Shown: positions 1-55,606 of the stretch, piece by piece
Layout of the letters: every line of letters begins with the position of its first letter
Numbering within the stretch: the stretch's first letter is position 1
Sequence record: PZ386965.1
Source of the DNA: a phage
Strand: one strand, 5' to 3'
DNA: 64,000 bases
Position numbers and translations under genes: made by a program
Notes under the pieces: generated by a model
What the model was told of the DNA's origin: nothing
Databases searched by the model: none
What the model saw: the letters and a program-made list of their open reading frames with translations, nothing else

Positions 1-128
1 ACACTATGAAGGAATGCATCAGTGTAGTATTCTAATTGAACAGGTTCTTTAATCACTTTAGCCGCTTTGGTTTCAAACAGGCCCATAAGGGCCTTTTTAA
101 GAATTTGTTCGTTAGTGTTCAGTTTCAT
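1..128 (-). CDS. hypothetical protein, N-terminal part only (gene runs off window start)
   Basis: ATG at 128 on minus strand opens a stop-free frame to the window edge (MKLNTNEQILKKALMGLFETKAAK...). Confidence 0.3.
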   Translation of the reverse strand, partial: MKLNTNEQILKKALMGLFETKAAKVIKEPVQLEYYTDAFLHS

Positions 129-175
129 AGTCAAAATCTCTTCGTTAAGTTTATAATTAAAACTTTTTCTAGAAA

Positions 176-1345
176 TCATTCCGGGTACCTCAAAGCGTCA
201 TCAGAGTTAGTTATATCAATAATAGATATGGAGTTTTCTGCTAACCCGTTTTTAGATAATTGACGTTTATAATACCTTTCACAATATGTACACGTTGACC
301 CACAGATTTCATTAGCACAATCAAAATCTGGATGTCTGAACCACCTTTTTTCTAAAAAGCCATCTAACAAAGAGGTTTCAATATTTACTGTATGTGAAAA
401 CTCAGTCTCATTTTCAAGAGTGAAAATAGTCTCTAAAGGCTTCCACAGTTCTAACAAATTACCTTCAAACTTTTCAGAAGCGTATGCTTCAAGAACTTTC
501 AAAATGTAGTCTGTGCTACCTGTACGTCCTGAAACTTTGAATTGAGTGATACCAATATCATTATAAAGTTTCAAATCTTGAGGACGAACAAAACGAGTTC
601 TCAACCAGTTAAATGGGTCTGTATCACGAGCTTTAATACAGTGCTGCATTGGATATCCATTTAAGGATTTAGCATCATCAGCGGTAACATCAGTACTATG
701 GAAAATATAGCAAGAGTCACGATAGCTACAATGTGTTGTATACCCTTTACCAGCATTAGAACAGAACTCATTTACAAGAACTTCAAATATTATATTGTTC
801 TTATTGCAAAACTCTGCTGCACGCTTCAGGAAAGAAACTGAACGGTTCTTATGAATTCCACAGCAGACCTTTTTGATATTATATTGGTCATGCAAGTATT
901 TGATTTGAGTTACGGCATCAACATGTAGAATTGTTGAAACTTCAATCTCAATATCTTTATTGACTTCACGAACAATTTCCATAACAACAGGGTTAGCGAT
1001 AGTAATACGCCATACGCCTATTGACCAAAGATACTGAACATAATCCTGAATAGCTTTCTTCTTCCACTCAACTAGTTCTCTTTTTGAACCAGGATTTATC
1101 GTGTTGAGTGTATAGTTAAAGCAAATACCTAATTCATTACAACGTTTAACATAGTCTTCTAACATCTTTTTGTCAACGTCAGGAAGCCTAAAATCAGGTC
1201 TGGCTGCTACAAAAGCCATTTCTCTTGTAGAACCATATACTTCGTTTATCAAGCTATTAGGATAGGTTTTATTGAGCTCTACGATTTTATCAAGAAGAGC
1301 TAAATCAAAATTCGTTCCGATTTTAAAAGTATTCATTTTTTGCAT
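176..1345 (-). CDS. hypothetical 389-aa protein with C-terminal CxxxCxxC cysteine cluster; first gene of the sugar-nucleotide module
   Basis: Long ORF from track; C-terminal CANEICGSTCTYC cluster; immediately downstream of HAD phosphatase and NTase/kinase genes. Confidence 0.6.
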   Translation of the reverse strand: MQKMNTFKIGTNFDLALLDKIVELNKTYPNSLINEVYGSTREMAFVAARPDFRLPDVDKKMLEDYVKRCNELGICFNYTLNTINPGSKRELVEWKKKAIQDYVQYLWSIGVWRITIANPVVMEIVREVNKDIEIEVSTILHVDAVTQIKYLHDQYNIKKVCCGIHKNRSVSFLKRAAEFCNKNNIIFEVLVNEFCSNAGKGYTTHCSYRDSCYIFHSTDVTADDAKSLNGYPMQHCIKARDTDPFNWLRTRFVRPQDLKLYNDIGITQFKVSGRTGSTDYILKVLEAYASEKFEGNLLELWKPLETIFTLENETEFSHTVNIETSLLDGFLEKRWFRHPDFDCANEICGSTCTYCERYYKRQLSKNGLAENSISIIDITNSDDALRYPE

Positions 1346-1391: not shown

Positions 1392-1778
1392 TTATAGATT
1401 CGGTTTATATGATTTAAATGTTTCGAATTCGCCTTTATTCATAAGAGTTTTGAATTCGTCAGGACGCATAGCTTTGTCGTCGATAATCCAATCATATACT
1501 GGTTTATGTGTTAGCAAATTATGGTACTTCAAACCAATGTTTTCCAAGTTCTGAATCAGACTTGGGAGAATGTCAATTGCTATACGACCAGGACCTACTG
1601 ACTTCATACCACGAGCAGTGTAAAGCGTTATGGTATGCCCTGCATCATACAGGGCATTAATGGCAGACACCATTTCGACGTCCGGTTTGAAGTTCACGTA
1701 ATCACGATTGTTATTCCACTCTGTTATACAATCATCGACATCAAAACAAAGATTAAGCATGTTTTCTACACGGTGCAT
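1392..1778 (-). CDS. HAD-superfamily phosphatase-like protein
   Basis: Asp-rich DxD motif near N-terminus (FDVDDCIT); ATG overlaps upstream stop (TAATG); track ORF trimmed to internal ATG. Confidence 0.55.
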   Translation of the reverse strand: MHRVENMLNLCFDVDDCITEWNNNRDYVNFKPDVEMVSAINALYDAGHTITLYTARGMKSVGPGRIAIDILPSLIQNLENIGLKYHNLLTHKPVYDWIIDDKAMRPDEFKTLMNKGEFETFKSYKPNL

Positions 1779-3463
1779 TAGATTCGTTCCCATTGATGAG
1801 TGATATCGCCACCGATTGGACGATAGGAAACACCAGTTTCTTTATCAGTTAGTACCCATTTACCAGGATTTTTTGTAATCAGAGTAGCCATTACAGGTTC
1901 TGCTACGTCATAACTAATAGAGCCATCTTGAAGTACACGACCCATGTTACGTAATTGCTTAGTCAGAAGTTCCATACCTTTATAATATGCGGCTACCGCT
2001 TTAAGTGGATTATTCTTGAAATAACCACCTAATGCAATCCAGATAATTGCTACTGCCAAATGATGATACTCGTTAAACGAACTCATCTTTCCATATTTGT
2101 AAACTAATGGATTGATGTTAATAGTCACATTACAAGTTGTTTCATCAATAGTAAACTGTCCCCAGGTCGGATTAGCATTGAATTCATCATAACCTGAAAC
2201 AGCATAAAGCACTTTAGCTTCATCGTACAATTTTGGCCCGTAAATCTTGGTTTCACCAAAATATCCACGAGGGTCGATAAACTTGACTTCGCCGTTATCA
2301 GTAATCATAGTATTACTGAAGTTCGGGTCACCATGAATAACAGAGTACTGTCCCTGAGAACGGTTATGATAACGAATAAGATGTTCTAAAGCTTGTTTCA
2401 ACATTGGCTTCAGACGTCCAATCTTAGTGTAGTTCACGTGTGTGATTTTACCAAATGAATCAATCAATGGCTGAATGCTTTCACAACGATCAATAACTTT
2501 CGTATAGAACTCTTTAGTGAAATCACGGCGAACAGTTTCAGGACTTACAAAATAAGTGTCCGTGCTGAATTTCAGTGCATCTAAAATTGCATCAACAATT
2601 TGTGGACGAGCAAGACTTGATTTGGATTTAATATATTCAAATGCCGGCTTACCTTTAATACGTTCCATTTCAAAATTATTTTCATTTACCGAAACTAACT
2701 GAGGAACTGAATCTGATTTCACTTTCAAGTACCATGAAATCTCATCTTTTTGAAGAGCTCGACCTTGTTCGGTTAACGCGAATTTAGTTACAGTTTCTTC
2801 GCCAATTTCAACTGCATTAAAACTACGATTAAGTTCACGAACTTCATGAGCTTTTTCAAGTTTAGGCATATCACCTAAATCAATTAGATTCATAAGCTCT
2901 GATTTATTGAATGCACTCCCGTAAAGGAATTCTACAAAATCACGTCCTTTGCAGTATTCGTGAATTTCCTCATCAGTAGAACCCATGTAGAATTCCCAGT
3001 CTTTGAACTGATAAATTCCTACAACATTACCGCCTGTTGAACCTACGTTAGTGATATTTTCACCATCGAAATTATATCGACATTCATCACCCTTAACATA
3101 GATTGCGTTAACATTCCAAGACCATGAACCAAAATCAGGAATAATATCACACCAGTTAACAATTACGTTATGTCCATCTAAATCTTTGTATAATTTAGCA
3201 AGAGCATAAGCAGAACCATACGCTTCATCAACTGTACGAATAGTCACATTGAACCCTTCTTGCTCACAATAAGCTCGAACAGTTTCAGCAAATTTTGAAT
3301 GAACTACTACAATAATTTCATCTGCGCCAAGGTCAGAATAAATTGTATACAAATTGCTCAGAATAGTGTCTTGTTTATAGTTAACAAGCACCTTAGGAAT
3401 ATGATGCGTTATTGGATACAAACGAGTTGCCAGTCCAGCACCAAGAATAACAGCTTTTTTCAT
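1778..3463 (-). CDS. bifunctional sugar-1-phosphate nucleotidyltransferase / sugar kinase (APH-like)
   Basis: N-terminal GxGTRLxPIT-type signature (ILGAGLATRLYPIT) of NDP-sugar pyrophosphorylases; C-terminal HGDxxxxN (HGDPNFSN) and IDPRG kinase motifs. Confidence 0.7.
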   Translation of the reverse strand: MKKAVILGAGLATRLYPITHHIPKVLVNYKQDTILSNLYTIYSDLGADEIIVVVHSKFAETVRAYCEQEGFNVTIRTVDEAYGSAYALAKLYKDLDGHNVIVNWCDIIPDFGSWSWNVNAIYVKGDECRYNFDGENITNVGSTGGNVVGIYQFKDWEFYMGSTDEEIHEYCKGRDFVEFLYGSAFNKSELMNLIDLGDMPKLEKAHEVRELNRSFNAVEIGEETVTKFALTEQGRALQKDEISWYLKVKSDSVPQLVSVNENNFEMERIKGKPAFEYIKSKSSLARPQIVDAILDALKFSTDTYFVSPETVRRDFTKEFYTKVIDRCESIQPLIDSFGKITHVNYTKIGRLKPMLKQALEHLIRYHNRSQGQYSVIHGDPNFSNTMITDNGEVKFIDPRGYFGETKIYGPKLYDEAKVLYAVSGYDEFNANPTWGQFTIDETTCNVTININPLVYKYGKMSSFNEYHHLAVAIIWIALGGYFKNNPLKAVAAYYKGMELLTKQLRNMGRVLQDGSISYDVAEPVMATLITKNPGKWVLTDKETGVSYRPIGGDITHQWERI

Positions 3464-3644: not shown

Positions 3645-4280
3645 TCATTGCTCGCCTCGTAACATGGCACCTAGTGCACCGCCTGGATGGAACTTAAGGA
3701 AGTCATTAGAGGTAAATCCACGTTCAGACGAAAGGTTGATAGCGAACGTATCGATAAGCGCTAACAACAATGTAGTGGACATTGTCGGAGCTAAAGAGTT
3801 CTCGTCAACTTCTACCGCGATACCGGTACAGAACGTATAATCAAAAAGAGCTTCGTATTCTTGCGGAATGTCCGGGTTACAATGCAACAGAATCTGTTTA
3901 ACCTGAGGACGAATCATACGAAGATGTTTAGCAACACCTATCATTTCTTCAGTTTTACCAGAACGACTAATATGAATCAACACGTCATTAGGCGCAATGA
4001 ATCCTGCATCACCGTGAGAATAATGCCCAGTGTTCAAGTACATACTTGGGATACCGAGTGAAGCAAATGTCTCGGAAGCTTTAGTTGCAATATTAGCATT
4101 CTTACCAACACCTGTAATAATTACTCGGCTTTCATAATTACTAAGACCAGGGCGTCGAAGAGTTTCTAGAATAGCATTATAACGAGCAGGGTTTTGACTA
4201 ATTACTTTAGCCATAGCGGCCAAAGAAGAAGCTTGTTTTATGATTGCGTCAATAGCGATATTAATAGGAGTAGTTTTCAT
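3645..4280 (-). CDS. SIS-domain sugar-phosphate isomerase (arabinose-5-P / heptose isomerase-like)
   Basis: SIS-like phosphosugar-binding region (ITGVGKNANIATKASETFASLGI), ~210 aa typical of single-domain SIS isomerases. Confidence 0.65.
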   Translation of the reverse strand: MKTTPINIAIDAIIKQASSLAAMAKVISQNPARYNAILETLRRPGLSNYESRVIITGVGKNANIATKASETFASLGIPSMYLNTGHYSHGDAGFIAPNDVLIHISRSGKTEEMIGVAKHLRMIRPQVKQILLHCNPDIPQEYEALFDYTFCTGIAVEVDENSLAPTMSTTLLLALIDTFAINLSSERGFTSNDFLKFHPGGALGAMLRGEQ

Positions 4281-7090: not shown

Positions 7091-7111
7091 AATGGGACCG
7101 AAGTCCCATTG
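7091..7111 (-). terminator. stem-loop with UUCG tetraloop between regA and gene 43
   Basis: GGGAC-TTCG-GTCCC hairpin on transcribed strand. Confidence 0.4.
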
Positions 7112-10461: not shown

Positions 10462-10469
10462 TATAAATA
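10462..10469 (+). promoter_or_regulatory. late promoter TATAAATA upstream of HNH endonuclease gene
   Basis: Exact TATAAATA about 45 nt upstream of ATG at 10515. Confidence 0.5.
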
Positions 10470-10514: not shown

Positions 10515-11231
10515 ATGAATTATAACTCAATATACGAAAAGCTTATTACCAATGCTAAATCAAGAAGTTTAGATGGTTATACAGAACGTCATCACATTAT
10601 ACCACAATGTTTAGGTGGAAGTGATGATGCTTCAAACTTAGTAGACTTAACACCAGAAGAACATTATTTGGCACATCAACTGTTGGTAAAAATCTATCCA
10701 GATAATGCCTCTTTAATATACGCTGCTCGTATGATGACCATATCATCTCCTAAAGCAGATAGAAGCAAAAACAAATTATTTGGATGGCTTCGTCGTAAGA
10801 ATCAAGAAGTTCAAAAGAACAAAGAATTCACGGCTGAAACCCGTAAGAAAATGTCCGAGTCTGCAAAAAATAAACCAAAGATTACCTGTCCACATTGTGG
10901 TTTAACTGGAACTGAAGGAAACATGCGTCGTTGGCATTTTGATAATTGTAAACAAGGTCCAACGCCTAAAATAGTAAAATTATCTGATGATGAAAAACAG
11001 AGGATAAGTTCTAAACTTAAAACAATAGAGTGGAAACTCCACACATGTGTACACTGTGGTCTAGAAGGAAAAGCTTGCAATATAGTTCCTCATGAGAAAA
11101 ACTGCAAACTTAATCCTAATAGAATAAAACCTAATGTAACAATAGTGGAATGTCCATACTGCTCTAAAAGTGGTTCTATATCAAATATGAAAAGATGGCA
11201 TTTCGATAATTGTAAATATAAGCCTCATTAA
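10515..11231 (+). CDS. free-standing HNH homing endonuclease with three Cys-rich repeats
   Basis: HNH core HHIIPQCLGGSDDASNLVDLTPEEHYLAH; three repeats of CxxCG...RRWHFDNCK; only plus-strand gene inside a minus-strand block. Confidence 0.85.
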   Translation: MNYNSIYEKLITNAKSRSLDGYTERHHIIPQCLGGSDDASNLVDLTPEEHYLAHQLLVKIYPDNASLIYAARMMTISSPKADRSKNKLFGWLRRKNQEVQKNKEFTAETRKKMSESAKNKPKITCPHCGLTGTEGNMRRWHFDNCKQGPTPKIVKLSDDEKQRISSKLKTIEWKLHTCVHCGLEGKACNIVPHEKNCKLNPNRIKPNVTIVECPYCSKSGSISNMKRWHFDNCKYKPH

Positions 11232-14412: not shown

Positions 14413-14460
14413 ATTATTTCCTCATTAGTTAATTCATTCTATCATCCGTTTATAAAGCAA

Positions 14461-14490
14461 AAAAGGAACTCCGAAGAGTTCCTATCCACA
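14461..14490 (-). terminator. rho-independent terminator
   Basis: GGAACTC-TTCG-GAGTTCC hairpin followed by TTTTTTG on minus strand. Confidence 0.75.
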
Positions 14491-14655
14491 TAGTACACCA
14501 TACAGAGGCTCATTTGAACTTTTAAATCGAATTGGCTTGTATGTAATAGTTCCTTCGGCTTTAGCTTTATCATAAGACTCTTTAAAACGTCTCATTCTTT
14601 CTGCTTTGCCTTTACGGATTTTATCAAAATTTTCAGAAGTCGGGATGTTCGTCAT
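14482..14655 (-). CDS. small basic protein (57 aa)
   Basis: ORF MTNIPTSENFDKIRKGKAERMRRFKESYDKAKAEG... ending at terminator hairpin; below track length cutoff. Confidence 0.4.
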   Translation of the reverse strand: MTNIPTSENFDKIRKGKAERMRRFKESYDKAKAEGTITYKPIRFKSSNEPLYGVLCG

Positions 14656-14694
14656 GCATAAGCACCTCTCAGAAAATGCCTAAATCGATTTCTC

Positions 14695-14901
14695 TCATCG
14701 TTTCCACCATTTCTTAACTTGAAATGAATCAACCCACACGAGTTGTTTTGGGTCTGCCTTTACAATAGGCGGACAAATTTCTGTAATAGAACCGTCGTGA
14801 TATTCCTTTTCGGAAATTTTAACACAAAGAGGACCACCCAATTTAATGGTGAACCCTGCGTTCAGCTTCAGACGTTTAAACTTTGTTTGAACTAGCGCCA
14901 T
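14695..14901 (-). CDS. hypothetical protein
   Basis: Track ORF, trimmed start. Confidence 0.45.
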   Translation of the reverse strand: MALVQTKFKRLKLNAGFTIKLGGPLCVKISEKEYHDGSITEICPPIVKADPKQLVWVDSFQVKKWWKR

Positions 14902-15199
14902 TAATGATGTCCTCAATAGCTTGACGAGTAGTAACCCACTGGATTTTAATTAACTTGTCATTATATGGTTGTCGTAGAATATCCCGAGATTTCTTAATAG
15001 CATATTCGTAAGCTTCGAAGTTGTTTTGAATTGCTGCTTCTTGAGCATGAGCATAAAGACGGTTTAGTTCAAAACGGTTCTTTTTAAGAATCTTTTCGGA
15101 TTTTTTACGTGCTTCAGCTTCATTTTTCTTTTGGATTTCTTGTAGCATTTTAGCTACTGCATCTTCTGCTTCTTTATTTTCAATAATCTCGGTAGTCAT
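14876..15199 (-). CDS. hypothetical protein (55.x region)
   Basis: 107-aa ORF, lysine-rich. Confidence 0.5.
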   Translation of the reverse strand: MTTEIIENKEAEDAVAKMLQEIQKKNEAEARKKSEKILKKNRFELNRLYAHAQEAAIQNNFEAYEYAIKKSRDILRQPYNDKLIKIQWVTTRQAIEDIINGASSNKV

Positions 15200-15200
15200 A

Positions 15201-15416
15201 TTATCTCATTAAATTAAAATAAAAACGTCCGTCCTCTTCAATACAGAACTCGTACTCAACTGGAGTCCCATTTATCGAAAATGACACGTCATGCGGGTTC
15301 AAAGGGTCGATGTCAAAATTAATTTTAAATTCTCGACCCAACAGTTTTACCAAATAAGGGATTGCTTCGTCAAAAGGTTCTTCTAAGTAGTTAGAGATGT
15401 CAATTGTCATCCTCAT
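15201..15416 (-). CDS. hypothetical protein
   Basis: ATG overlapping gene 55 stop. Confidence 0.45.
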
Positions 15417-15975
15417 ATAAAAAATCCAAACTAGGCGAATCGCTAACAACTTCCTTCTTTTCAGCCCCAGGAGCTTTATAAGCGGATTCTTCATAATGCG
15501 TCATTTTATCGTAGATGTCTTGAATAAACGTTTCATCTACCAACGCTACCATATCATCGTCATGACTGTCGTAGACATTATGAACGAAGTAACTATATTT
15601 CTTTGCAACTTCCTTACGTTCTTTTTTGATACGTTGGACAAAAGCATTAAAACAAGCTCGAGTTATGTATGCATGTGGGTTATTGTACTTAGTTTCGTCG
15701 AAATTATGAAGTCCCTTAATAGAGGCTTCAATCCCATCTGCAATCATCTCCTGCTTCCAAGACTGGGTATATCCTGAAAAGTTGAAACGTTTGGACAGGC
15801 CTTCGGCGATAAGCATAATTGCTAAACCGATGGTATCATTCTGACGAATAATTTTGTTTGGGTCTTTATTATTTAAGAGCTCCTTTTTCCACTCGATTAT
15901 AGCGGCGAGAAGCTCTTTATTATTCACATAGTTATTTTTAGGTTTTTGTTCAGTCATAAGTACCTCTTGGCTCAA
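15400..15975 (-). CDS. 55: late transcription sigma factor gp55
   Basis: [21 protein letters not shown] region collinear with T4 gp55; ~190 aa. Confidence 0.9.
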
Positions 15976-19863: not shown

Positions 19864-21677
19864 TGGTGTTTAACCCTATGCATGATTTCTTTATTTTTAC
19901 CGAGATTAAATCCGCGTTCGTTCGGATTTCCAAGATAACCGCATGTTCTTCTTATGGTGTTCATCTTTTTAGGATCAGTTTCTCCACAAACTGAACAAAC
20001 AAATCCATTTTCAGTAGGAGTCATTTCATGAGTACTTCCGCATGTAAAACATTTATCCACTGGCATATTAACACCAAAATAATCTAAATGTTGCGCAGCA
20101 TAATCCCAGACAGCCTCAAGTCCCTTTAAATTGTTTTTCATATCTGGAAGTTCAACATAAGAAATGTGACCACCTGTCGCAATGAAATGATACGGCGCTT
20201 CACGAGAAATCTTTTCAAACGGAGTAATATTTTCTTCTACTGAAACATGGAAACTATTAGTGTACCAGCCTTTATCGGTAACATCTTTTACGCTTCCATA
20301 TTTTTCAGTATCAAGTTTACAGAAGCGATAACAAAGGTTTTCAGCAGGAGTAGAATATAAACTAAAAGCAAATCCAGTTCTTTCGGTCCACTGTTTAAGA
20401 TGAGCATTCATTTTAGTTAAAATTTCTTGTCCAATATCACGACCAACAAGAATATTCAATTCATGAATACCAATGTATCCTAAAGACACTGAACTTCTGC
20501 CGTTTTTAAATAACTCAATTATATCGTCATCAGGTTTAAGACGAACCCCGAATGCACCTTCTTGGTAAAGAATAGGAGCAACAGTCGCTTTAACTCCTTT
20601 TAAAGAACTAATTCTACACATCAAGGCTTCAAAACACAGATCCATTCGTTCATTAAATAGCTCAACAAATTTCTGTTCATTGAACTGTGTTCCAATATAA
20701 GAATCTAACGCGATACGAGGAAGATTCAGTGTTACAACACCAAGATTATTACGTCCATCAAGAATTTCATTACCAGTCGAATCTTTCCATACGCTCAAGA
20801 AACTACGGCAACCCATTGGAGAAACAGGAACTGAAGAACCGGTAATAGCTTTATTATTCTTAACAGAAATAATGTCAGGATACATTCTTTTGCTTGCACA
20901 TTCTAACGCAAGTTGTTTAATATCATAGTTTGGATCATCTTTATAAAGATTAACACCTTCTTCAACAAACATAACAAGTTTAGGAAAAATAGGAGTTATT
21001 CCATCACGACCAAGACCTTTAATGCGGTTTTTAAGAATTGCCTTCTGAATCATTCGTTCAGTCCAGTCGGTTCCTGTTCCAAATGTTATAGTAACAAAAG
21101 GAGTTTGCCCGTTTGAACTAAAAAGAGTATTTACTTCATATTCATAAGCTTGGAATGCATCGTATACGTCTTTTTCCGTTTTAGATTGAGCATAATTCAA
21201 CGCATCAGCGATTTGCCATTTTTCTGCATCCTCAATATGTTTTGCATAGGTGCGTTTAACATAGGGAGAAAGTACTTTATCTACATTAGCAAAAGTCGTT
21301 CCGCCGTATTGATGGGAAGCAACTTGTGCAGTAATTTGTGCCATAATTGCAGTAGCAACACCAATCGATTTAGGCGTTTCGATTTGAGCATTGCCTAATT
21401 TAAAACCATTCTCAAGCATCCCCTTTAAATCGACTAAACAGCAATTAGTAAACGGAAGAGCAGGAGAATAATCAATATCATGCATGTGGATAATTCCACT
21501 TTCATGCGCATTCATAATAAAAGACGGGACCGTATTTTTGGCAATGTGCTTAGACACAATACCAGCCATAAGGTCCCGTTGAGTTGGAAAAACACGAGAA
21601 TCTTTATTAGCATTCTCGTTCAAAAGATCTTTATTAGTTTTACGAATTAATCCTTCAATTTCTTTTTCAATTTTCAT
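19860..21677 (-). CDS. nrdD: anaerobic ribonucleoside-triphosphate reductase NrdD
   Basis: 605 aa continuous; C-terminal glycyl radical motif RRTCGYLG and Zn-ribbon cysteines. Confidence 0.95.
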   Translation of the reverse strand: MKIEKEIEGLIRKTNKDLLNENANKDSRVFPTQRDLMAGIVSKHIAKNTVPSFIMNAHESGIIHMHDIDYSPALPFTNCCLVDLKGMLENGFKLGNAQIETPKSIGVATAIMAQITAQVASHQYGGTTFANVDKVLSPYVKRTYAKHIEDAEKWQIADALNYAQSKTEKDVYDAFQAYEYEVNTLFSSNGQTPFVTITFGTGTDWTERMIQKAILKNRIKGLGRDGITPIFPKLVMFVEEGVNLYKDDPNYDIKQLALECASKRMYPDIISVKNNKAITGSSVPVSPMGCRSFLSVWKDSTGNEILDGRNNLGVVTLNLPRIALDSYIGTQFNEQKFVELFNERMDLCFEALMCRISSLKGVKATVAPILYQEGAFGVRLKPDDDIIELFKNGRSSVSLGYIGIHELNILVGRDIGQEILTKMNAHLKQWTERTGFAFSLYSTPAENLCYRFCKLDTEKYGSVKDVTDKGWYTNSFHVSVEENITPFEKISREAPYHFIATGGHISYVELPDMKNNLKGLEAVWDYAAQHLDYFGVNMPVDKCFTCGSTHEMTPTENGFVCSVCGETDPKKMNTIRRTCGYLGNPNERGFNLGKNKEIMHRVKHQ

Positions 21678-23464: not shown

Positions 23465-23761
23465 TTATTGTTCTACCCAGGCACAGGAAACTTCGAAATC
23501 AGGACCACCGTATTCCCAGTGATATTCACCAACAGGAATCCAGTCACCGTGCTCGTTTTCTTCGTAGTCTTCAGGTTCAAGACCAACGAATCGCCATTGA
23601 ACACCTATGATTCGATTACCCATTAATATACGAAATTCACCCCATGGATTATCGATAGCATATTGGATATCGTTCTTAGCACGAGAACACATTTCTTGAT
23701 ATAACAAAGCTTCTAATTCGCCCTGATCATAAGGGCCCGGGAAAGTTAAATCAATACTCAT
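23465..23761 (-). CDS. hypothetical protein
   Basis: Track ORF. Confidence 0.5.
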   Translation of the reverse strand: MSIDLTFPGPYDQGELEALLYQEMCSRAKNDIQYAIDNPWGEFRILMGNRIIGVQWRFVGLEPEDYEENEHGDWIPVGEYHWEYGGPDFEVSCAWVEQ

Positions 23762-29889: not shown

Positions 29890-29918
29890 CCCCCTAAAGG
29901 GACCCGAAGGTCCCCACA
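29890..29918 (-). terminator. stem-loop with UUCG tetraloop after secreted-protein gene
   Basis: GGGACC-TTCG-GGTCCC hairpin right after stop. Confidence 0.45.
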
Positions 29919-30217: not shown

Positions 30218-31207
30218 TTATTTATAGTAAGAATTATGATTTTCGAGATAGACTTGCTCAAGGAAATCATCCCAGAAACTCATATCTACTTTTTGTTGCA
30301 TACCATTCTTGGCAGCTTGTTCTGACGCATGTTCAACTTGGTCAACGATATCTTCTAGGAATTCTTGTACAGTTTTAAACGTATGTTTACCAAGCTTAAC
30401 ATCGAGAATAAATGGAGCATCTTGAAGTGGGTAAACCAGGTCGCCGGTTTTGTAAATTTCCAATAATTGAAGTCCACCACGACATGCATGACTCAATGCT
30501 TTCCAGTCAATACCTTCGTTAGCTTCTGCCTTACGAGCACGTTCACCATAGTTCTCTTCTAGTTTAACCAGGATGGCATTGAACTCTTTATTGGTTAACG
30601 TGTCTTGGAATTTACGGTCTAACAGATTATAGAATGTTTGCTTACCTGTTTTCTCGTTTTCGGTTTCAACCCACGAAGCAAATTCACCTACAGGCAGAAC
30701 ATTCTTCATATGTGATAAACGAATTACTGCACCATTATCAAAGTATTGTCCCCATTCATTAGAACGTTTAAGGGCTTGACGAAGAACAGCCAGTCGAGAA
30801 CCCTTGACACCGTATTTAGAAGCTTGCTTACGGACATACCCTAAATAAGATTTCATGTTAGTGGTATAGAAACGAGACCTGTTATCTTGAATATACTTCC
30901 ATACATCAGGCAAATCAGATTTAACTACTAGACTTGGTGGAGTGTGAAGCATATCTAATGCGACGGTTTCACCATCCGCAGCTAGTTTAAAGAAATATTT
31001 GAGACTATACAACTCATGGTCTACGTCGTCTTTTGTGTTCTTAGAAGATGTGTTATTCGTGTTCTTGCTCATGTGTTCTTTAACGTTACCGGTCAAGATA
31101 TCACGAGCATGAGGGACATAAATTTCTTTAAAATCGACGTCAGATTCAGGAGTAGACGTTCCATAAAGGTGGCTACCAAAGTAGCTTTTCATAATTGTTT
31201 TCATCAT
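30218..31207 (-). CDS. Pol-beta-superfamily nucleotidyltransferase-like protein
   Basis: GS-x11-DxD at N-terminus (YFGSHLYGTSTPESDVDF) typical of minimal nucleotidyltransferases; 329 aa with helical C-terminal domain. Confidence 0.6.
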   Translation of the reverse strand: MMKTIMKSYFGSHLYGTSTPESDVDFKEIYVPHARDILTGNVKEHMSKNTNNTSSKNTKDDVDHELYSLKYFFKLAADGETVALDMLHTPPSLVVKSDLPDVWKYIQDNRSRFYTTNMKSYLGYVRKQASKYGVKGSRLAVLRQALKRSNEWGQYFDNGAVIRLSHMKNVLPVGEFASWVETENEKTGKQTFYNLLDRKFQDTLTNKEFNAILVKLEENYGERARKAEANEGIDWKALSHACRGGLQLLEIYKTGDLVYPLQDAPFILDVKLGKHTFKTVQEFLEDIVDQVEHASEQAAKNGMQQKVDMSFWDDFLEQVYLENHNSYYK

Positions 31208-39813: not shown

Positions 39814-40227
39814 TTAGTAAATTGATTTACCATAGTATTTGTACCAAGACGGCCGTTGAGCAATTTTTTCATCTAAGCGTGCTTGACTTATCGCAATGGA
39901 CGCTTCGGACGGGACGTAATTATTACGAAATTCTACAGGAATGTCGGAAATATCCTGGACAGTCGTGTCCTTGATTTTGAAACCACGTTTCAAGCATTCA
40001 GCGATTAGCTCGATTTGACGTAAACGTAAAAATTCGAGTTTGTCGTAAAAGAATGTTACGTGACCTGTGCCTAAGATAAATGTTGGAGAGATTTTAAAAT
40101 CCTTTACACGTTTACCGTTTTGAACATGTTTACGGACTGCACCAAATACGCGTGGTAATTCACGATACTCGGCCATAAGATGTTGGTCGGCCAGTTCAGA
40201 AACAAGTGTTAAATTGATACGGGTCAT
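39814..40227 (-). CDS. denV: pyrimidine dimer DNA glycosylase DenV (endonuclease V)
   Basis: [34 protein letters not shown] collinear with T4 DenV; 137 aa. Confidence 0.95.
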
Positions 40228-45757: not shown

Positions 45758-46131
45758 CTTATTTCCTTAACGAATTCCATAGCTTCTTCATATTCATACT
45801 TTTTAACAGCTTCAACATACTGAGCTTGGGCTTTTGCGCACTGAACTTTCCACTCGCGAACTCGAGCTCTGTGATGACGGCCTTGGTGCCAATATCCTGC
45901 CCAATTAATAGGCATTAATAAAAACGGTACAATAAGTGGTGCGACGAACATTAATGAAAACGCTGCATCAGACGATATAACTTTATTGGAATCTAAAATA
46001 GCTCCTATAATCATAAAGATTAAAAATGCTAAAGCTAAAATAGGGCCAAATAGTACTTCGTTTGGGATTAATTTACGTTTGTATTCGTATGCCCAGGGCT
46101 TAATTGGCATGTACAGGGTTGGCTTTGACAT
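45736..46131 (-). CDS. membrane protein
   Basis: Hydrophobic helices; start uncertain (track start is non-ATG). Confidence 0.45.
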   Translation of the reverse strand: MSKPTLYMPIKPWAYEYKRKLIPNEVLFGPILALAFLIFMIIGAILDSNKVISSDAAFSLMFVAPLIVPFLLMPINWAGYWHQGRHHRARVREWKVQCAKAQAQYVEAVKKYEYEEAMEFVKEIRCKSLNS

Positions 46132-46696
46132 ATTCTCTACATTCCATAATAAATTGCTCAAGGATTAAATTGTTAGTGAAATTAGGACTAACAACCATAG
46201 TTTCATAAAGCGCATCAATAGCACTTAAAGCATCAACTCTTTTAAGCAAAGGCTTGCCTTCATACATAGTTTCAGAATCGATGATTAACGTAAAGTAATA
46301 TTTTTTATTATCGACTAGAACTTCTGTATCGATATAAAACATATTAGACCTCAGAAGCTTATCTCTAAAACCATAATAATCTTCTGAACGTTCGCTGATA
46401 TATTCCCATTCAGTGTTTAAACAACAAACAGACCATGTAGGAGCAACGAAATCAGTGAATCTAATATCATGGTCTGCAACTAGTTTAGCAATAGCTCCGA
46501 TATCATGAATCATAATACCTGGGGCTAATAAAGATTTTCGGCGATTTGCGTATTCAGTTGTCTCATAAGAAGCTGACCAGTACCATTTACGTCCAGTTGC
46601 AACATATCGTAATGAATCAACTAAAGACGTAGGTGGATTTACCTTATCTCGGAACTCTTCGAACATTGAGTCAATATCATTATTTTGGTTTCGCAT
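46100..46696 (-). CDS. hypothetical protein
   Basis: ATG with AAAGGAG RBS. Confidence 0.55.
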   Translation of the reverse strand: MRNQNNDIDSMFEEFRDKVNPPTSLVDSLRYVATGRKWYWSASYETTEYANRRKSLLAPGIMIHDIGAIAKLVADHDIRFTDFVAPTWSVCCLNTEWEYISERSEDYYGFRDKLLRSNMFYIDTEVLVDNKKYYFTLIIDSETMYEGKPLLKRVDALSAIDALYETMVVSPNFTNNLILEQFIMECREYVKANPVHAN

Positions 46697-46745
46697 GTTA
46701 ACTCCTTTATTATCCAAAAGGAGGACCGGAGTCCTCCGTATTATT

Positions 46746-47410: not shown

Positions 47411-47691
47411 TATTTGTACGAATTAATAATCTCTTCCATTTTATCCAGAACATGGATATCGATTATACGAGGAAGTGCCGAAAGATTAGAACCGTCGAAA
47501 GATTTAAGGTCTTCCAAAATAATATTTTCAATGGCCTTTAAAGCTTCCGCAGATTCTGATGCAGAATTAAATTCAGGAATTTCTCCAAAAAGACGTAAGA
47601 ATGAACCAAAGTATTCTGCGGCGATTTCTTTAGCTTGTTCGATATCAGACTTAAACATTTTGTTTTCCTCATTTGTTGGTGGAGTAATCAT
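47410..47691 (-). CDS. hypothetical acidic protein
   Basis: 93-aa ORF. Confidence 0.5.
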   Translation of the reverse strand: MITPPTNEENKMFKSDIEQAKEIAAEYFGSFLRLFGEIPEFNSASESAEALKAIENIILEDLKSFDGSNLSALPRIIDIHVLDKMEEIINSYK

Positions 47692-47715
47692 ATCACCATC
47701 CTTGGCGTTTGTACA

Positions 47716-48590: not shown

Positions 48591-48610
48591 TTTTCAGTAA
48601 GTTATAGACC

Positions 48611-48636
48611 CCCTAATGGGGACCGAAGTCCCCATT
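48611..48636 (-). terminator. stem-loop with UUCG tetraloop
   Basis: GGGGAC-TTCG-GTCCCC directly after stop of 48639..49259. Confidence 0.4.
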
Positions 48637-48638
48637 CT

Positions 48639-49259
48639 TTACTTACGAGTTTTTGCATACTGAGCAGCGTCAGCAGCCAAACGACCTGCCTGACGAAGTT
48701 TTTCTTTAATCTCATCATGAAGTGGTTGAGTATACTTCAAACCTTCGATAGTCAAATAAAGACGATAAAGGTCTGGGGTGTCAAGGTTGTTGATATGTTG
48801 GCCATTACGAAGAATATTGAATTCACGAACGAGTGAAGATGTATCAGATTCAATATCACGAACAAGCGAAGATAGTTGTTTATATTTTTTTTCCAGGCTA
48901 GAAGTATCAAACTTAAGAGCAGGAGCTTTAGGAGCTGCTTTTACTTCCGGCTTAGGCTCAGGTTTTGCTTTAGGGGTCGCAGGTTTAGGAATGGTAGGAG
49001 CAGGTTTTACTTTAGGCGAACCAGATTTAGCAGAAACACCACCACTAACAATATCTTTGAATGCTTTAGAAGCTCTGTAATATTCTTTTTGGCTGGAAGT
49101 GTCGATACCATACATGGCTTGAACGTTTTTGAAAAACTCTGTACTAGTTTTTGTACCAGAAATAGCATCGTAAGCAGCTTGCCATTTCTCTTTTGTCATG
49201 CGTACACCGGCTTCGGTGATTACTTCCGTTTCGGCTAAAAATTCATTAAAAGTATACAT
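48639..49259 (-). CDS. internal-protein-like protein with Pro/Lys-rich linker (variant capsid-targeting N-terminus)
   Basis: MYTFNEFLAE start; PKPATPKAKPEPKPEVKAAPKAP linker; late promoter TATAAATA upstream. Confidence 0.6.
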   Translation of the reverse strand: MYTFNEFLAETEVITEAGVRMTKEKWQAAYDAISGTKTSTEFFKNVQAMYGIDTSSQKEYYRASKAFKDIVSGGVSAKSGSPKVKPAPTIPKPATPKAKPEPKPEVKAAPKAPALKFDTSSLEKKYKQLSSLVRDIESDTSSLVREFNILRNGQHINNLDTPDLYRLYLTIEGLKYTQPLHDEIKEKLRQAGRLAADAAQYAKTRK

Positions 49260-49286
49260 TGATGGTCCTTAGAAAGTAGGTTTATT

Positions 49287-49296
49287 GTTTACTATA
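49287..49296 (-). promoter_or_regulatory. late promoter TATAAATA
   Basis: Plus-strand tatttata = TATAAATA on minus about 30 nt upstream of ATG at 49259. Confidence 0.55.
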
Positions 49297-49304
49297 TTTA
49301 TACA

Positions 49305-49997: not shown

Positions 49998-50074
<77 letters not shown>

Positions 50075-50080
50075 AATATA

Positions 50081-50154
50081 TGACCCAGACCAGATTCGAA
50101 CTGGTAACCTTTCCCTTATGAGGGGACTGCTGCTAACCATTGAGCTACAGGGCC
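50081..50154 (-). tRNA. tRNA with CAU anticodon (Met or lysidine-Ile)
   Basis: Hand-folded: D-arm TAGCTCAATGGTTAGC, anticodon loop CTCATAA, T-arm ACCAG-TTCGAAT-CTGGT, acceptor with one mismatch. Confidence 0.7.
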
Positions 50155-50250
50155 TAAATAACTTTCTATTATGAAAGGCACTTGAGGGAGCACCTTTGGT
50201 AATAGAGGGTAGATTAATAATAACACATAATTCTTAAAGCAAATTACGTT

Positions 50251-50541
50251 TTACCGTACCATATTAATGTAGTTATATTCAATGCAACGTAATTTCAAAG
50301 GGTTCTTGAAAATATCATATTCAAGAGGGCCTGATTCAGTTTCAATAAAGAAATCAAAGTTCACACTATTAAATTTGCGGTCTTCCCAAAGTAATTTAAC
50401 CTGTGAAGATGAACGGTCGACGTAAACCTTTTCAACCTCAAAGTTAGTCAGAATACCGTAGTCATCGACTAGTGCTTTAGCTGCACGTCGGTCACTTTCA
50501 TATCCATTCTCAACGGATTTTACCTTAGCATAAAGAATCAT
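50251..50541 (-). CDS. hypothetical protein
   Basis: 96-aa ORF. Confidence 0.5.
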   Translation of the reverse strand: MILYAKVKSVENGYESDRRAAKALVDDYGILTNFEVEKVYVDRSSSQVKLLWEDRKFNSVNFDFFIETESGPLEYDIFKNPLKLRCIEYNYINMVR

Positions 50542-50900
50542 GAATGTTCCACCACTTCGAAGGTATGAGCATCAACAATATGATACCAGTCAAAATTTTC
50601 TTCTGCGTTTTTATAAATTTCGCGAAGAGCATCCACAGTTTTTCCTGTAGCAACAAGGTCGTCAATACCACCAAGAGGATAACAGTCATAACCAGCAAAC
50701 AGAAGGAAATTAATAGTTTCTGTAGGTTCTGGATGCAGTGTACCATTGTCATCGACTACTTCAAAGAACATATAACCAGGCGATTTAGTTTTAATCCAAG
50801 CCCATGCTTGAGCCGCTGAATCAAATGGTCTGCGTATCAAACGACAATCAGTGTCTTTAGAAGGATTTGCTTCAAAATCCGCATATACATGATATTTCAT
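50538..50900 (-). CDS. hypothetical protein
   Basis: 120-aa ORF. Confidence 0.5.
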   Translation of the reverse strand: MKYHVYADFEANPSKDTDCRLIRRPFDSAAQAWAWIKTKSPGYMFFEVVDDNGTLHPEPTETINFLLFAGYDCYPLGGIDDLVATGKTVDALREIYKNAEENFDWYHIVDAHTFEVVEHS

Positions 50901-53686: not shown

Positions 53687-54508
53687 TTAAGATTTCCAAA
53701 CAGTATTCGCGGAGAAACGTTTTCCTTTTGACATAAACTGCTGAGTAGGTAACATGATTATGTTAGCCCAGTCTTTAGGAGCTATTTCTGTTATTGTTCC
53801 TCTAATGTGGCCTGGCAGGTATGCTTTAATCATTTTGTCAGCACCTTGAAATCCTTTCACCTTGCTCCAGTCTATCTTCAACTTCGTGTTATTAGTAATA
53901 GTAGTTGTGCTAGCATATTGCTTCAGCAATTCTTCAAGAAACTGTTGTCGTGCTTTAGGTGGGATATAGTGCAAGTTTAACCCATACATCAAATTATGTT
54001 TACCCAATCCTAAATAAATAATCAAAGGATATCTGTCCCAATACGGCAGAGTATCTTTATGTTTAGCATCATACACGTAAGTATAAATTTTGCCTGGCGT
54101 AGGCTTGACTACTTTATGACCTTTTACACTTTTCTTAATTGTTTCAACAAACCACTTAGATGATTTGTTGTTTACTGCTGCGCCTTCATTTCTAATCTTT
54201 TCTCGTATTGAACTGCGAAACGAGTTTATCATCAGAAGTTGACGTTCTTGCTTATTAAGTTTATTTTTAGGTTTAGATTCAAGCGTTTCAATTTTCTGTG
54301 CAGTCTTAATAGATGATGCATATCTAGACATTGCAGATGTAAACGACGAGTATTTTATTCCTTTTGATTCTGCAAATGCTTTTGCAGTGATTCCTTTCTC
54401 TTTAGCTTTCTTGTATTCTAATCCTATCTCAATCCATTTTCTTTCATTCATAGACTGAGCAATCTTAGGGGCTTGTACGCCTTCAGATATAATTTGGAAT
54501 ATGCTCAT
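53687..54508 (-). CDS. 2: DNA end protector gp2
   Basis: 273 aa; [39 protein letters not shown] collinear with T4 gp2. Confidence 0.9.
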
Positions 54509-55155
54509 TCAACTTTCCTCATTTTACAATTATCACCATGCCAACGTTTATAAGGCGCAGGTTTACATTCTATACCGCAGTATTGGCATATCTTATTAGG
54601 AGTATTTAAGTATCCTAATCTCATGTTTTCCTTTTCTTCAGGAGTTCTATTTCGTCCCGTAAGAGTATTTTTTATTTTGTCTCTAATCTCTTTAGGCATT
54701 ATCCTGCCTCGGCCTGCTTTACCTATTTTAGCTTTATGCTCTTCGGATAATTTCTTACCCTTCTTAGCTAAACTCATTTTCTTTTTAGATTCTTCGGAAA
54801 TAGGACCTAATTTTCTACCTCTGGATGAATCGCCTATTCTTTTTCGCACATCAATAGAACGGCCTCGTCCTCCCTTTCCTCCTAGGTCTATATTATATGT
54901 ATCTTCTCTATCCACAAAAGATTGATCAACTAATTCTGCTTCCTTTTGGAAAGCCATTTCTTCATTTAGTAATTCGTCACCGGTATCATACACATATAAT
55001 ACTTCTTTTACAAAATTATCTAATCCGTATTTAGCATGGGCTTTTAAGATAATTTTACCTGTTCCTTTATAAGAATCATCCGGGTTATTAGTTTTATGAA
55101 CACCTATATAAATTTTATTATTTACGATGTTAGTTATTTTATATACAGTATACAT
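54505..55155 (-). CDS. free-standing GIY-YIG homing endonuclease (Seg-like)
   Basis: [27 protein letters not shown] motif; basic linker; C-terminal [22 protein letters not shown]; inserted between genes 2 and 4. Confidence 0.85.
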
Positions 55156-55156
55156 A

Positions 55157-55606
55157 TCATCCCTTATATCCTAAACGACGTAAACCGTCTTCTGTGAGAA
55201 TTCTGAATTTAATATTTCTTTTAGCCGCTAATGCTGACGCAGCTTTCCATTTGTCGCAGTTCACAGACCACACGTAGATCTCGTTCATATAACGTTTCTT
55301 TGCTGCAGTAGTAAGATTTGCAGGCTTAATAGGCGGTTGAGTTTCTTTCTTTGGTTTTATTTCTACAAAAAACTCTTGACCTGATGCATCTTTCATCCAT
55401 ATGTCCATATAGTATCGACGTTTCTTACCTTCTGCGTTACAGAAATATGGAATTACTGCTGTTTCACTACCCCATGCAATAATTTCTGGATTTTTATCTA
55501 ACCATTCGAAAAAGAATTTTTCCCAGTTTGAACGATACGTTATTTTGGTATGGTCTCCACGGTATTTTTTTAAATTTTTCGGGACCCATTTACCAGAGTA
55601 GGCCAT
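55157..55606 (-). CDS. 4: head completion protein gp4
   Basis: MAYSGKWVPKNLKKYRGDHTKITYRSNWEKFFFEWLDKNPEIIAWGSETAVIPYFC collinear with T4 gp4. Confidence 0.93.
   Translation of the reverse strand: MAYSGKWVPKNLKKYRGDHTKITYRSNWEKFFFEWLDKNPEIIAWGSETAVIPYFCNAEGKKRRYYMDIWMKDASGQEFFVEIKPKKETQPPIKPANLTTAAKKRYMNEIYVWSVNCDKWKAASALAAKRNIKFRILTEDGLRRLGYKG

Follow-up and report, generated by a model that had tools for sequence, protein, structure and literature searches.

In this work, we analysed a 64-kb stretch of phage DNA (hereafter the window) and found that the interval between genes 47 and 55, where T4 carries its a-gt gene, contains no a-gt. The interval holds four small ORFs, orthologous to T4 genes that occupy the same neighbourhood, and these are followed in the direction of transcription by a UUCG hairpin with a U-run and by a sequence that fits the middle-promoter consensus. 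Taken as a whole, these features are very probably explained by an RB69-like Mosigvirus with arabinosyl modification of its DNA, in which the 47-55 interval would be an ordinary T-even transcription unit equipped with a terminator and a middle promoter, and we saw no conflict with this explanation in the sequence. For RB69 and its relatives, the literature already documents the lack of a-gt, the alternative sugar pathway, the terminator and the promoter. The only small addition made here concerns the hairpin-promoter cassettes, two of which flank a-gt in T4, RB18 and Roth67, as opposed to a single, hybrid-looking one in the window.

The window represents 64 kb out of the roughly 169 kb of the genome, and its sequence similarities place the source among the RB69-like T-even phages of the genus Mosigvirus. 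A sequence search using the 47-55 region as query matched 708 phage records, 147 of which covered at least 80% of the query in one contiguous stretch and thus have the uninterrupted a-gt-less interval in common with the window; the best matches were Mosigvirus phages (99% identity). The 47-55 interval of RB69 displays the same gene order and the same length (987 nt in both), with 97.8% nucleotide identity and 95-100% identity for the small ORFs. Only point differences separate the two intervals, including one in the -10 element (TAGAAT in the window, TAAAAT in RB69). The layout 47, a-gt.2, a-gt.3, a-gt.4, a-gt.5, 55 is annotated in RB69, ATK47 and mar005P1. Among complete genomes, the closest was that of Escherichia phage p000y, which is 96-98% identical to the whole window apart from interruptions by a few indels, and whose full genome was used as a stand-in for the parts located beyond the window. 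Two homing-endonuclease insertions found elsewhere in the window are absent from both RB69 and p000y.

Orthologues of T4 genes were identified by tblastn of the T4 proteins against the window (Table 1). In this part of the window, every gene lies on the - strand, in the transcription order 55, 71-aa ORF, 107-aa ORF, 68-aa ORF, 57-aa ORF, a 69-nt intergenic region and 47, after which come 46.2, 46.1 and 46. The a-gt.5 ORF overlaps the 3' end of gene 55, and the reading frames from 55 to a-gt.2 overlap or abut one another, save for one 39-nt gap that contains a ribosome-binding site. On the + strand of the interval, we observed only ORFs of 31-50 aa and one terminator-like match devoid of a T-run (14752-14774), which were taken as chance.

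Table 1. Position and supporting evidence of the features of the window discussed in the text.
Feature	Position	Strand	Evidence
HAD-like sugar phosphatase (RB69 gp51 homologue)	1392-1793	-	97.7% identity to RB69 gp51; phrog_1238
U32-peptidase-like protein (RB69 gp50 homologue), same module	176-1345	-	99.2% identity to RB69 gp50; Pfam Peptidase_U32
Bifunctional sugar kinase/nucleotidyltransferase (RB69 gp52:53 homologue), one 561-aa ORF	1778-3463	-	99.4-100% identity; Pfam NTP_transferase, weak kinase matches
Arabinose-5-phosphate isomerase (RB69 gp55 homologue)	3645-4280	-	97.6% identity to RB69 gp55; Pfam SIS
Gene 47 (SbcD-like recombination nuclease subunit; downstream boundary), 339 aa	13393-14412	-	100% identity to RB69 gp47, 76% to T4 gp47
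Predicted MotA-type middle promoter	14436-14462	-	Mot box TTTTGCTTTA (14462-14453), 11-nt spacer, -10 TAGAAT (14441-14436)
Predicted intrinsic terminator	14459-14483	-	Terminator scan; 8-bp stem and C(UUCG)G tetraloop 14464-14483, U-run 14459-14463
a-gt.2 orthologue, 57 aa, basic (pI 9.8)	14482-14655	-	76% identity to T4, 95% to RB69; Pfam DUF5486 (E=4.5e-28)
a-gt.3 orthologue, 68 aa, basic (pI 9.75)	14695-14901	-	71% identity to T4; phrog_1648 (E=5e-34); no Pfam family
a-gt.4 orthologue, 107 aa, basic (pI 9.1)	14876-15199	-	58% identity to T4, 100% to RB69; Pfam DUF2654 (E=1e-27)
a-gt.5 orthologue, 71 aa, acidic (pI 4.3)	15201-15416	-	47% identity to T4, 100% to RB69; Pfam DUF5491 (E=5.8e-13)
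Gene 55 (late sigma factor; upstream boundary)	15400-15957	-	91% identity to T4 gp55, 99.5% to RB69

The T4 record gives the order 55, a-gt.5, a-gt.4, a-gt.3, a-gt.2, mobB, a-gt, 47.1, 47, in agreement with the placement of a-gt between 47 and 55 by an earlier reading of the window (hereafter the sequence-only reading). Gene 55, the four a-gt.N ORFs and gene 47 of T4 are orthologous to those of the window (47-91% identity), and in both phages a-gt.2 is followed by a UUCG hairpin and a Mot-box promoter. The two differ between a-gt.2 and 47, where T4 has 2283 nt, encompassing mobB (a homing endonuclease), a-gt (the glucosyltransferase), 47.1 (a 46-codon ORF) and a second hairpin/promoter cassette, versus 69 nt in the window, from whose interval all three genes are missing. 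As T4 carries the same four small ORFs between 55 and a-gt, these are not a replacement for a-gt, and the proposal of the sequence-only reading that they hold the a-gt slot had to be abandoned. Its mention of three small basic ORFs was accurate for three of them (pI 9.1-9.8) but left out that there are four in all, a-gt.5 being acidic.

All four small ORFs matched PHROG families without function annotation, and three of them Pfam DUF families. A PDB sequence search with the four ORFs returned nothing below E=0.7. For a-gt.3, the homologue search gave 4 clusters, and the resulting alignment yielded an AlphaFold2 model of low quality (mean pLDDT 46.8). The main text of an early-protein screen of Mosigvirus AV110 (45 proteins) is silent on a-gt.N homologues. 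The small ORFs persist in phages devoid of any glucosyltransferase; their role is therefore unlikely to depend on glucosylation, and the 'a-gt.N' names indicate position only.

Just upstream of gene 47, the - strand contains the hairpin AGGAACUC-UUCG-GAGUUCCU (14483-14464), the foot of which overlaps the a-gt.2 stop codon (14482-14484). Its predicted folding energy is -13.9 kcal/mol (z=-3.9), a value that none of 200 shuffled sequences equalled, and U accounts for 6 of the first 8 bases directly after the stem. The sequence thus displays the pattern of an intrinsic terminator, i.e. a G+C-containing stem-loop immediately followed by a U-run and located downstream of a stop codon. A UUCG-loop terminator had been announced at 14461..14490, and the predicted hairpin was indeed recovered inside that span. 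The Mot-box promoter, which shares sequence with the U-tail of the terminator, is oriented toward gene 47 and lies 24 nt upstream of its ATG. The arrangement TTTTGCTTTA-N11-TAGAAT fits the middle-promoter consensus of T4 and RB69, (a/t)(a/t)(a/t)TGCTTtA-N11-13-TAnnnT (PMC1524935), and a strict search for this consensus over the 64 kb retrieved 3 sites versus 0.4 expected, all of them intergenic and on the - strand. Both signals are predicted at the same place in RB69 by the 2006 RB69 genome comparison (supplementary tables), which gives the promoter as Pm:40046 (score 22) and the TransTerm terminator '47<--a-gt.2' as 40044-40061 (confidence 100). The T4 records NC_000866 and AF158101 have no promoter or terminator features annotated for this region. 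With regard to the activator, motA and asiA are annotated in p000y, neither of them falling within the window, and RB69 has a motA orthologue (PMC1524935).

From these signals, we infer that gene 55 and then a-gt.5, a-gt.4, a-gt.3 and a-gt.2 would be co-transcribed in this phage, that their transcripts would end at the C(UUCG)G hairpin, and that MotA-dependent transcription would restart about 30 nt further on, into 47-46.2-46.1-46, from the promoter that overlaps the terminator U-tail.

Cassettes were compared in the window, RB69, T4, RB18, Klebsiella phage Roth67, Serratia phage CHI14 and Acinetobacter phage KARL-1. At the equivalent junctions of T4, RB18, Roth67, CHI14 and KARL-1, we found the same succession of a C(UUCG)G hairpin and a Mot-box-like promoter, with stems that differ in sequence and keep 5-8 pairs. 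Hairpin pairing was likewise conserved, despite variation of the stem sequence, across the equivalent junctions of 7 distinct cassettes. When a-gt is present (T4, RB18, Roth67), a cassette lies on each side of it, and when it is absent (window, RB69, CHI14, KARL-1) only one cassette is found. This organisation recalls the PeSL/PmSL elements, i.e. composite mobile cassettes of T4-like phages made of a stem-loop and a promoter (Arbiol 2010; Comeau 2014, PMC4122927). The window cassette shares with them the succession of a stem-loop, an immediately adjacent promoter, a Shine-Dalgarno sequence and a start codon; moreover, PeSL/PmSL cassettes are located at indel boundaries between related phages, as is the case at the a-gt locus. 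The Mot-box version, PmSL, has been described, the published examples being those of Vibrio phage nt-1 (PMC4122927), and we found no paper naming the a-gt locus as a PeSL/PmSL-bounded module.

The history of the locus was considered on five taxa and very short sequences. Over its left half, the window cassette is closer to T4 cassette 1, on the a-gt.2 side (18/26 versus 14/26 for cassette 2), and over its right half to T4 cassette 2, on the 47 side (17/25 versus 12/22 for cassette 1), both alignments being too short for statistics. The single cassette therefore looks like a hybrid of two T4-type cassettes, which suggests a deletion of a-gt. Between T4 and Roth67, identity is 66% for a-gt, 70% for gp47 and 77% for gp55; a-gt has thus diverged in line with its flanking genes, which fits vertical descent from an ancestor that was also ancestral to Mosigvirus. 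Tentatively, and to judge from sequence resemblance, the single cassette may be a recombination scar, a-gt having been bracketed in an ancestor by two such cassettes and then excised in the Mosigvirus lineage via the shared Mot box, around the time of the switch from glucosylated hydroxymethylcytosine to arabinosyl-5-hydroxycytosine. As 47.1 is also missing, one crossover would not suffice to account for the whole difference. The empty slot may instead be ancestral, a-gt having been inserted into the Tequatrovirus lineage while the Mosigvirus lineage lost nothing; this scenario, conceivable if somewhat doubtful, would account for the lack of a-gt between 55 and 47 in the Winklervirus CHI14 and in KARL-1, and mobile regulatory cassettes could equally mediate insertion. 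It fits less well with the two-sided resemblance of the window cassette to T4 cassettes 1 and 2, with the presence of a-gt in the same slot both in Tequatrovirus (T4, RB18) and in the more distant Roth67, and with its divergence between T4 and Roth67 at the pace of gp47 and gp55.

The function of the hairpin was also considered. C(UUCG)G tetraloop hairpins were reportedly described in T4 intercistronic regions by Tuerk and colleagues in 1988. Their loop and closing pair are the same as here, and both were invariant in the 9 cassettes out of 9 that we compared. The window hairpin can be regarded as a textbook intrinsic terminator because, unlike these T4 intercistronic hairpins, it is followed by a canonical U-run. 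Conversely, at the a-gt.2 junction of T4, the homologous hairpin precedes AUAUUGCUUU, which is a poor U-tract, so that part of the role of such hairpins may lie in stabilising or processing RNA rather than in termination. Extending such a role to the window, with a hairpin serving mainly RNA stability or processing rather than efficient termination and genes 55 to 46 read through as one unit, would be consistent with the role proposed for other T4 C(UUCG)G hairpins, with the recurrence of these hairpins in T-even intergenic regions, and with the occurrence of four strong ones on the - strand of the window, a U-run being found at this one only. We nevertheless consider it unlikely, given the U-run directly after the stem, the maximal TransTerm confidence of the identical RB69 site, and the promoter located immediately downstream, which makes sense if upstream transcripts stop at the hairpin. 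The predicted terminator followed by a middle promoter is thus retained as the preferred reading of this junction.

Searches for glucosyltransferases were performed by tblastn using T4 a-gt and b-gt as queries. No homologue was detected in the 64-kb window (best E=0.5), which upholds the claim that a-gt is absent between 47 and 55, and the same search extended to the complete p000y genome gave nothing significant for either gene (best E=0.04). The latter value corresponds to an a-gt match at p000y positions 21321-21500 (69 aa; about window 46100-46717), which was rejected as chance, since it falls in a 205-aa window ORF that has no Pfam domain and gave no match in the window search. Ten large uncharacterised window ORFs were searched against Pfam, and a glycosyltransferase domain was found in none of them. 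No homologue of a gp42-type dCMP hydroxymethylase was found by tblastn in the window; just left of it, p000y carries a gene of the thymidylate-synthase family that shares 25% identity with T4 gp42 and 98.7% with RB69 gp48. As the RB69 counterpart of gene 42 makes 5-hydroxy-dCMP, not hydroxymethyl-dCMP, the substrate of a-gt would not exist. A simple relocation of a-gt (or b-gt) elsewhere in the genome, with DNA still glucosylated as in T4, might be entertained insofar as the window covers only part of that genome, but is hardly credible and already close to refuted by the lack of any a-gt or b-gt match in the whole of the near-identical p000y, by the arabinose content of RB69 DNA and the lack of an identified glucosyltransferase homologue in that phage, and by the low similarity of the p000y gene 42 homologue to T4 gp42.

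The sequence-only reading had linked the missing a-gt to the sugar-nucleotide module at the left end of the window and to a DNA modification different from T4 glucosylation. This link was corroborated, as the module comprises homologues of RB69 gp50, gp51, gp52:53 and gp55 (97.6-100% identity) and corresponds to a published arabinose pathway. The presence of arabinose in RB69 DNA was reported by Thomas et al. 2018, who identified no glucosyltransferase homologue in this phage (PMC6024577). According to Lee et al. 2026 (PMC13326640), the RB69 base is mono- and di-arabinofuranosyl-5-hydroxycytosine, the arabinosyl-5-hydroxy-dC ions being detected at m/z 376.13 and 508.18. In the same study, 5-hydroxy-dCMP is made by gp48, UDP-arabinofuranose synthesis is assigned to gp55 (the arabinose-5-phosphate isomerase, i.e. 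the first step of the donor pathway), gp52:53 and gp51, and sugar transfer is assigned to gp46:47 and gp3, as proposed arabinosyltransferases. The nucleosides of RB69 also occur in NP, another Mosigvirus (PMC13390438). The T4 combination of hydroxymethylcytosine and glucose is replaced in the Mosigvirus group by 5-hydroxycytosine and arabinose.

The UDP-arabinose supply genes (isomerase, kinase/nucleotidyltransferase and HAD phosphatase) are all present in the window (Table 1). The homologues of RB69 gp48, gp46:47 and gp3 were found in p000y with 97-100% identity, and all map outside the window, those of gp46:47 and gp48 just past its left edge and that of gp3 (99.2% identity) between gene 39 and rIIA. 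Because these genes fall outside the window, the presence of the synthase and of the putative transferases in this phage is deduced from its relatives. For gp3, homologues with at least 95% identity were retrieved from 156 phage records, among them the one Mosigvirus mar005p1 record; this number is close to that of the records having the a-gt-less interval (147).

Given its near-identity to RB69, we infer that this phage has DNA of the RB69 type, i.e. containing arabinosyl-5-hydroxycytosine. If the chemistry and enzyme roles described in the RB69 and NP literature apply, cytosines would be replaced by 5-hydroxycytosine bearing arabinofuranose, either one unit or two, and the enzymes whose genes lie at the left end of the window (the isomerase, the kinase/nucleotidyltransferase and the HAD phosphatase) would supply the activated sugar. 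The 5-hydroxy-dCMP synthase and one putative arabinosyltransferase would be encoded just past the left edge, and the other putative transferase between rIIA and gene 39. The lack of a-gt in the 47-55 interval of Mosigvirus would then reflect the absence of hydroxymethylcytosine glucosylation in the phage.

That RB69-type phages lack a-gt could be seen as soon as the RB69 genome was annotated, and the chemical explanation was provided in 2018 and again in 2026, so that the present finding matters little beyond correct annotation. If true, the excision of a-gt through a shared Mot box would make this locus a worked example of the PmSL-mediated loss of a DNA-modification gene. More generally, arabinosylated-cytosine DNA can be reliably recognised from an empty a-gt slot combined with an isomerase/kinase-nucleotidyltransferase/phosphatase module located beside gene 43, and this signature predicts resistance or sensitivity toward modification-dependent restriction systems.

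Coding sequences and regulatory elements were also noted elsewhere in the window (listed below), and some of them were compared with RB69 and other Mosigvirus phages, in particular with p000y, the nearest complete genome.

Additional features identified in the window
Feature	Coordinates	Strand	Details
RB69 ORF049c homologue	1-263		cut by window start
C(UUCG)G hairpin	7091-7110	-	strong; between regA and gene 43
HNH homing endonuclease	10515-11231	+	238 aa; phrog_655, E=3e-66
Conserved phage protein	28821-29822	-	333 aa; phrog_1250
C(UUCG)G hairpin	29898-29915	-	strong
Nucleotidyltransferase, RlaP / DNA polymerase beta-like family	30218-31207	-	329 aa; Pfam E=6e-13; phrog_388
C(UUCG)G hairpin	48615-48636	-	strong
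ORF	within 48592-49298		206 aa; phrog_2280
tRNA-Arg-tct and tRNA-Met-cat	49998-50154	-	only two tRNA genes in the window
MotA-type promoter, third strict match	50244	-	ATTTGCTTTA-N12-TATTAT
Homing endonuclease	54505-55155	-	216 aa; phrog_314, E=1.7e-50

In p000y, the genes for gp48 (5-hydroxy-dCMP synthase) and gp46:47 (putative arabinosyltransferase) lie about 100 nt to the left of the point at which the window begins, and the boundary therefore cuts off the key enzymes of the modification pathway. The nucleotidyltransferase adjoining the nrdC.11 region is the second in the window and lies outside the published arabinose pathway, i.e. the RB69-type route to arabinosyl-5-hydroxycytosine DNA. 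For the 333-aa conserved protein, matches to P-loop NTPase (AAA_22/AAA_16/nSTAND3) and HTH_37 domains were below threshold.

The three tabulated hairpins, with stems of 7-9 bp, are all on the transcribed strand, and none of them (0/3) is followed by a U-run or a Mot box.

Two homing endonuclease genes were found. The HNH gene, located between gene 45.2 and gene 46 and on the strand opposite to both, encodes a protein whose N-terminus shares 44% identity with T4 MobB. This endonuclease was found in none of the three genomes compared (RB69, ATK47 and p000y), and the segment holding it was covered at 80% or more in only 14 of 182 related records, the top match being OZ035759.1 (Mosigvirus mar005p1; 99.5%). 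A strict Mot-box promoter match at 10463 (- strand) directly adjoins this insertion. The segment carrying the second endonuclease gene (54508-55185) has no counterpart in p000y, and short segments at 23465-23743, 47415-47707 and 48592-49298 likewise lack a match in that genome.

The same applies to 50077-50856, in the tRNA region, where p000y carries ten tRNA genes at the corresponding place whereas the window carries two, the number reported for RB69 and NP. The third MotA-type promoter match is located immediately upstream of these tRNA genes.
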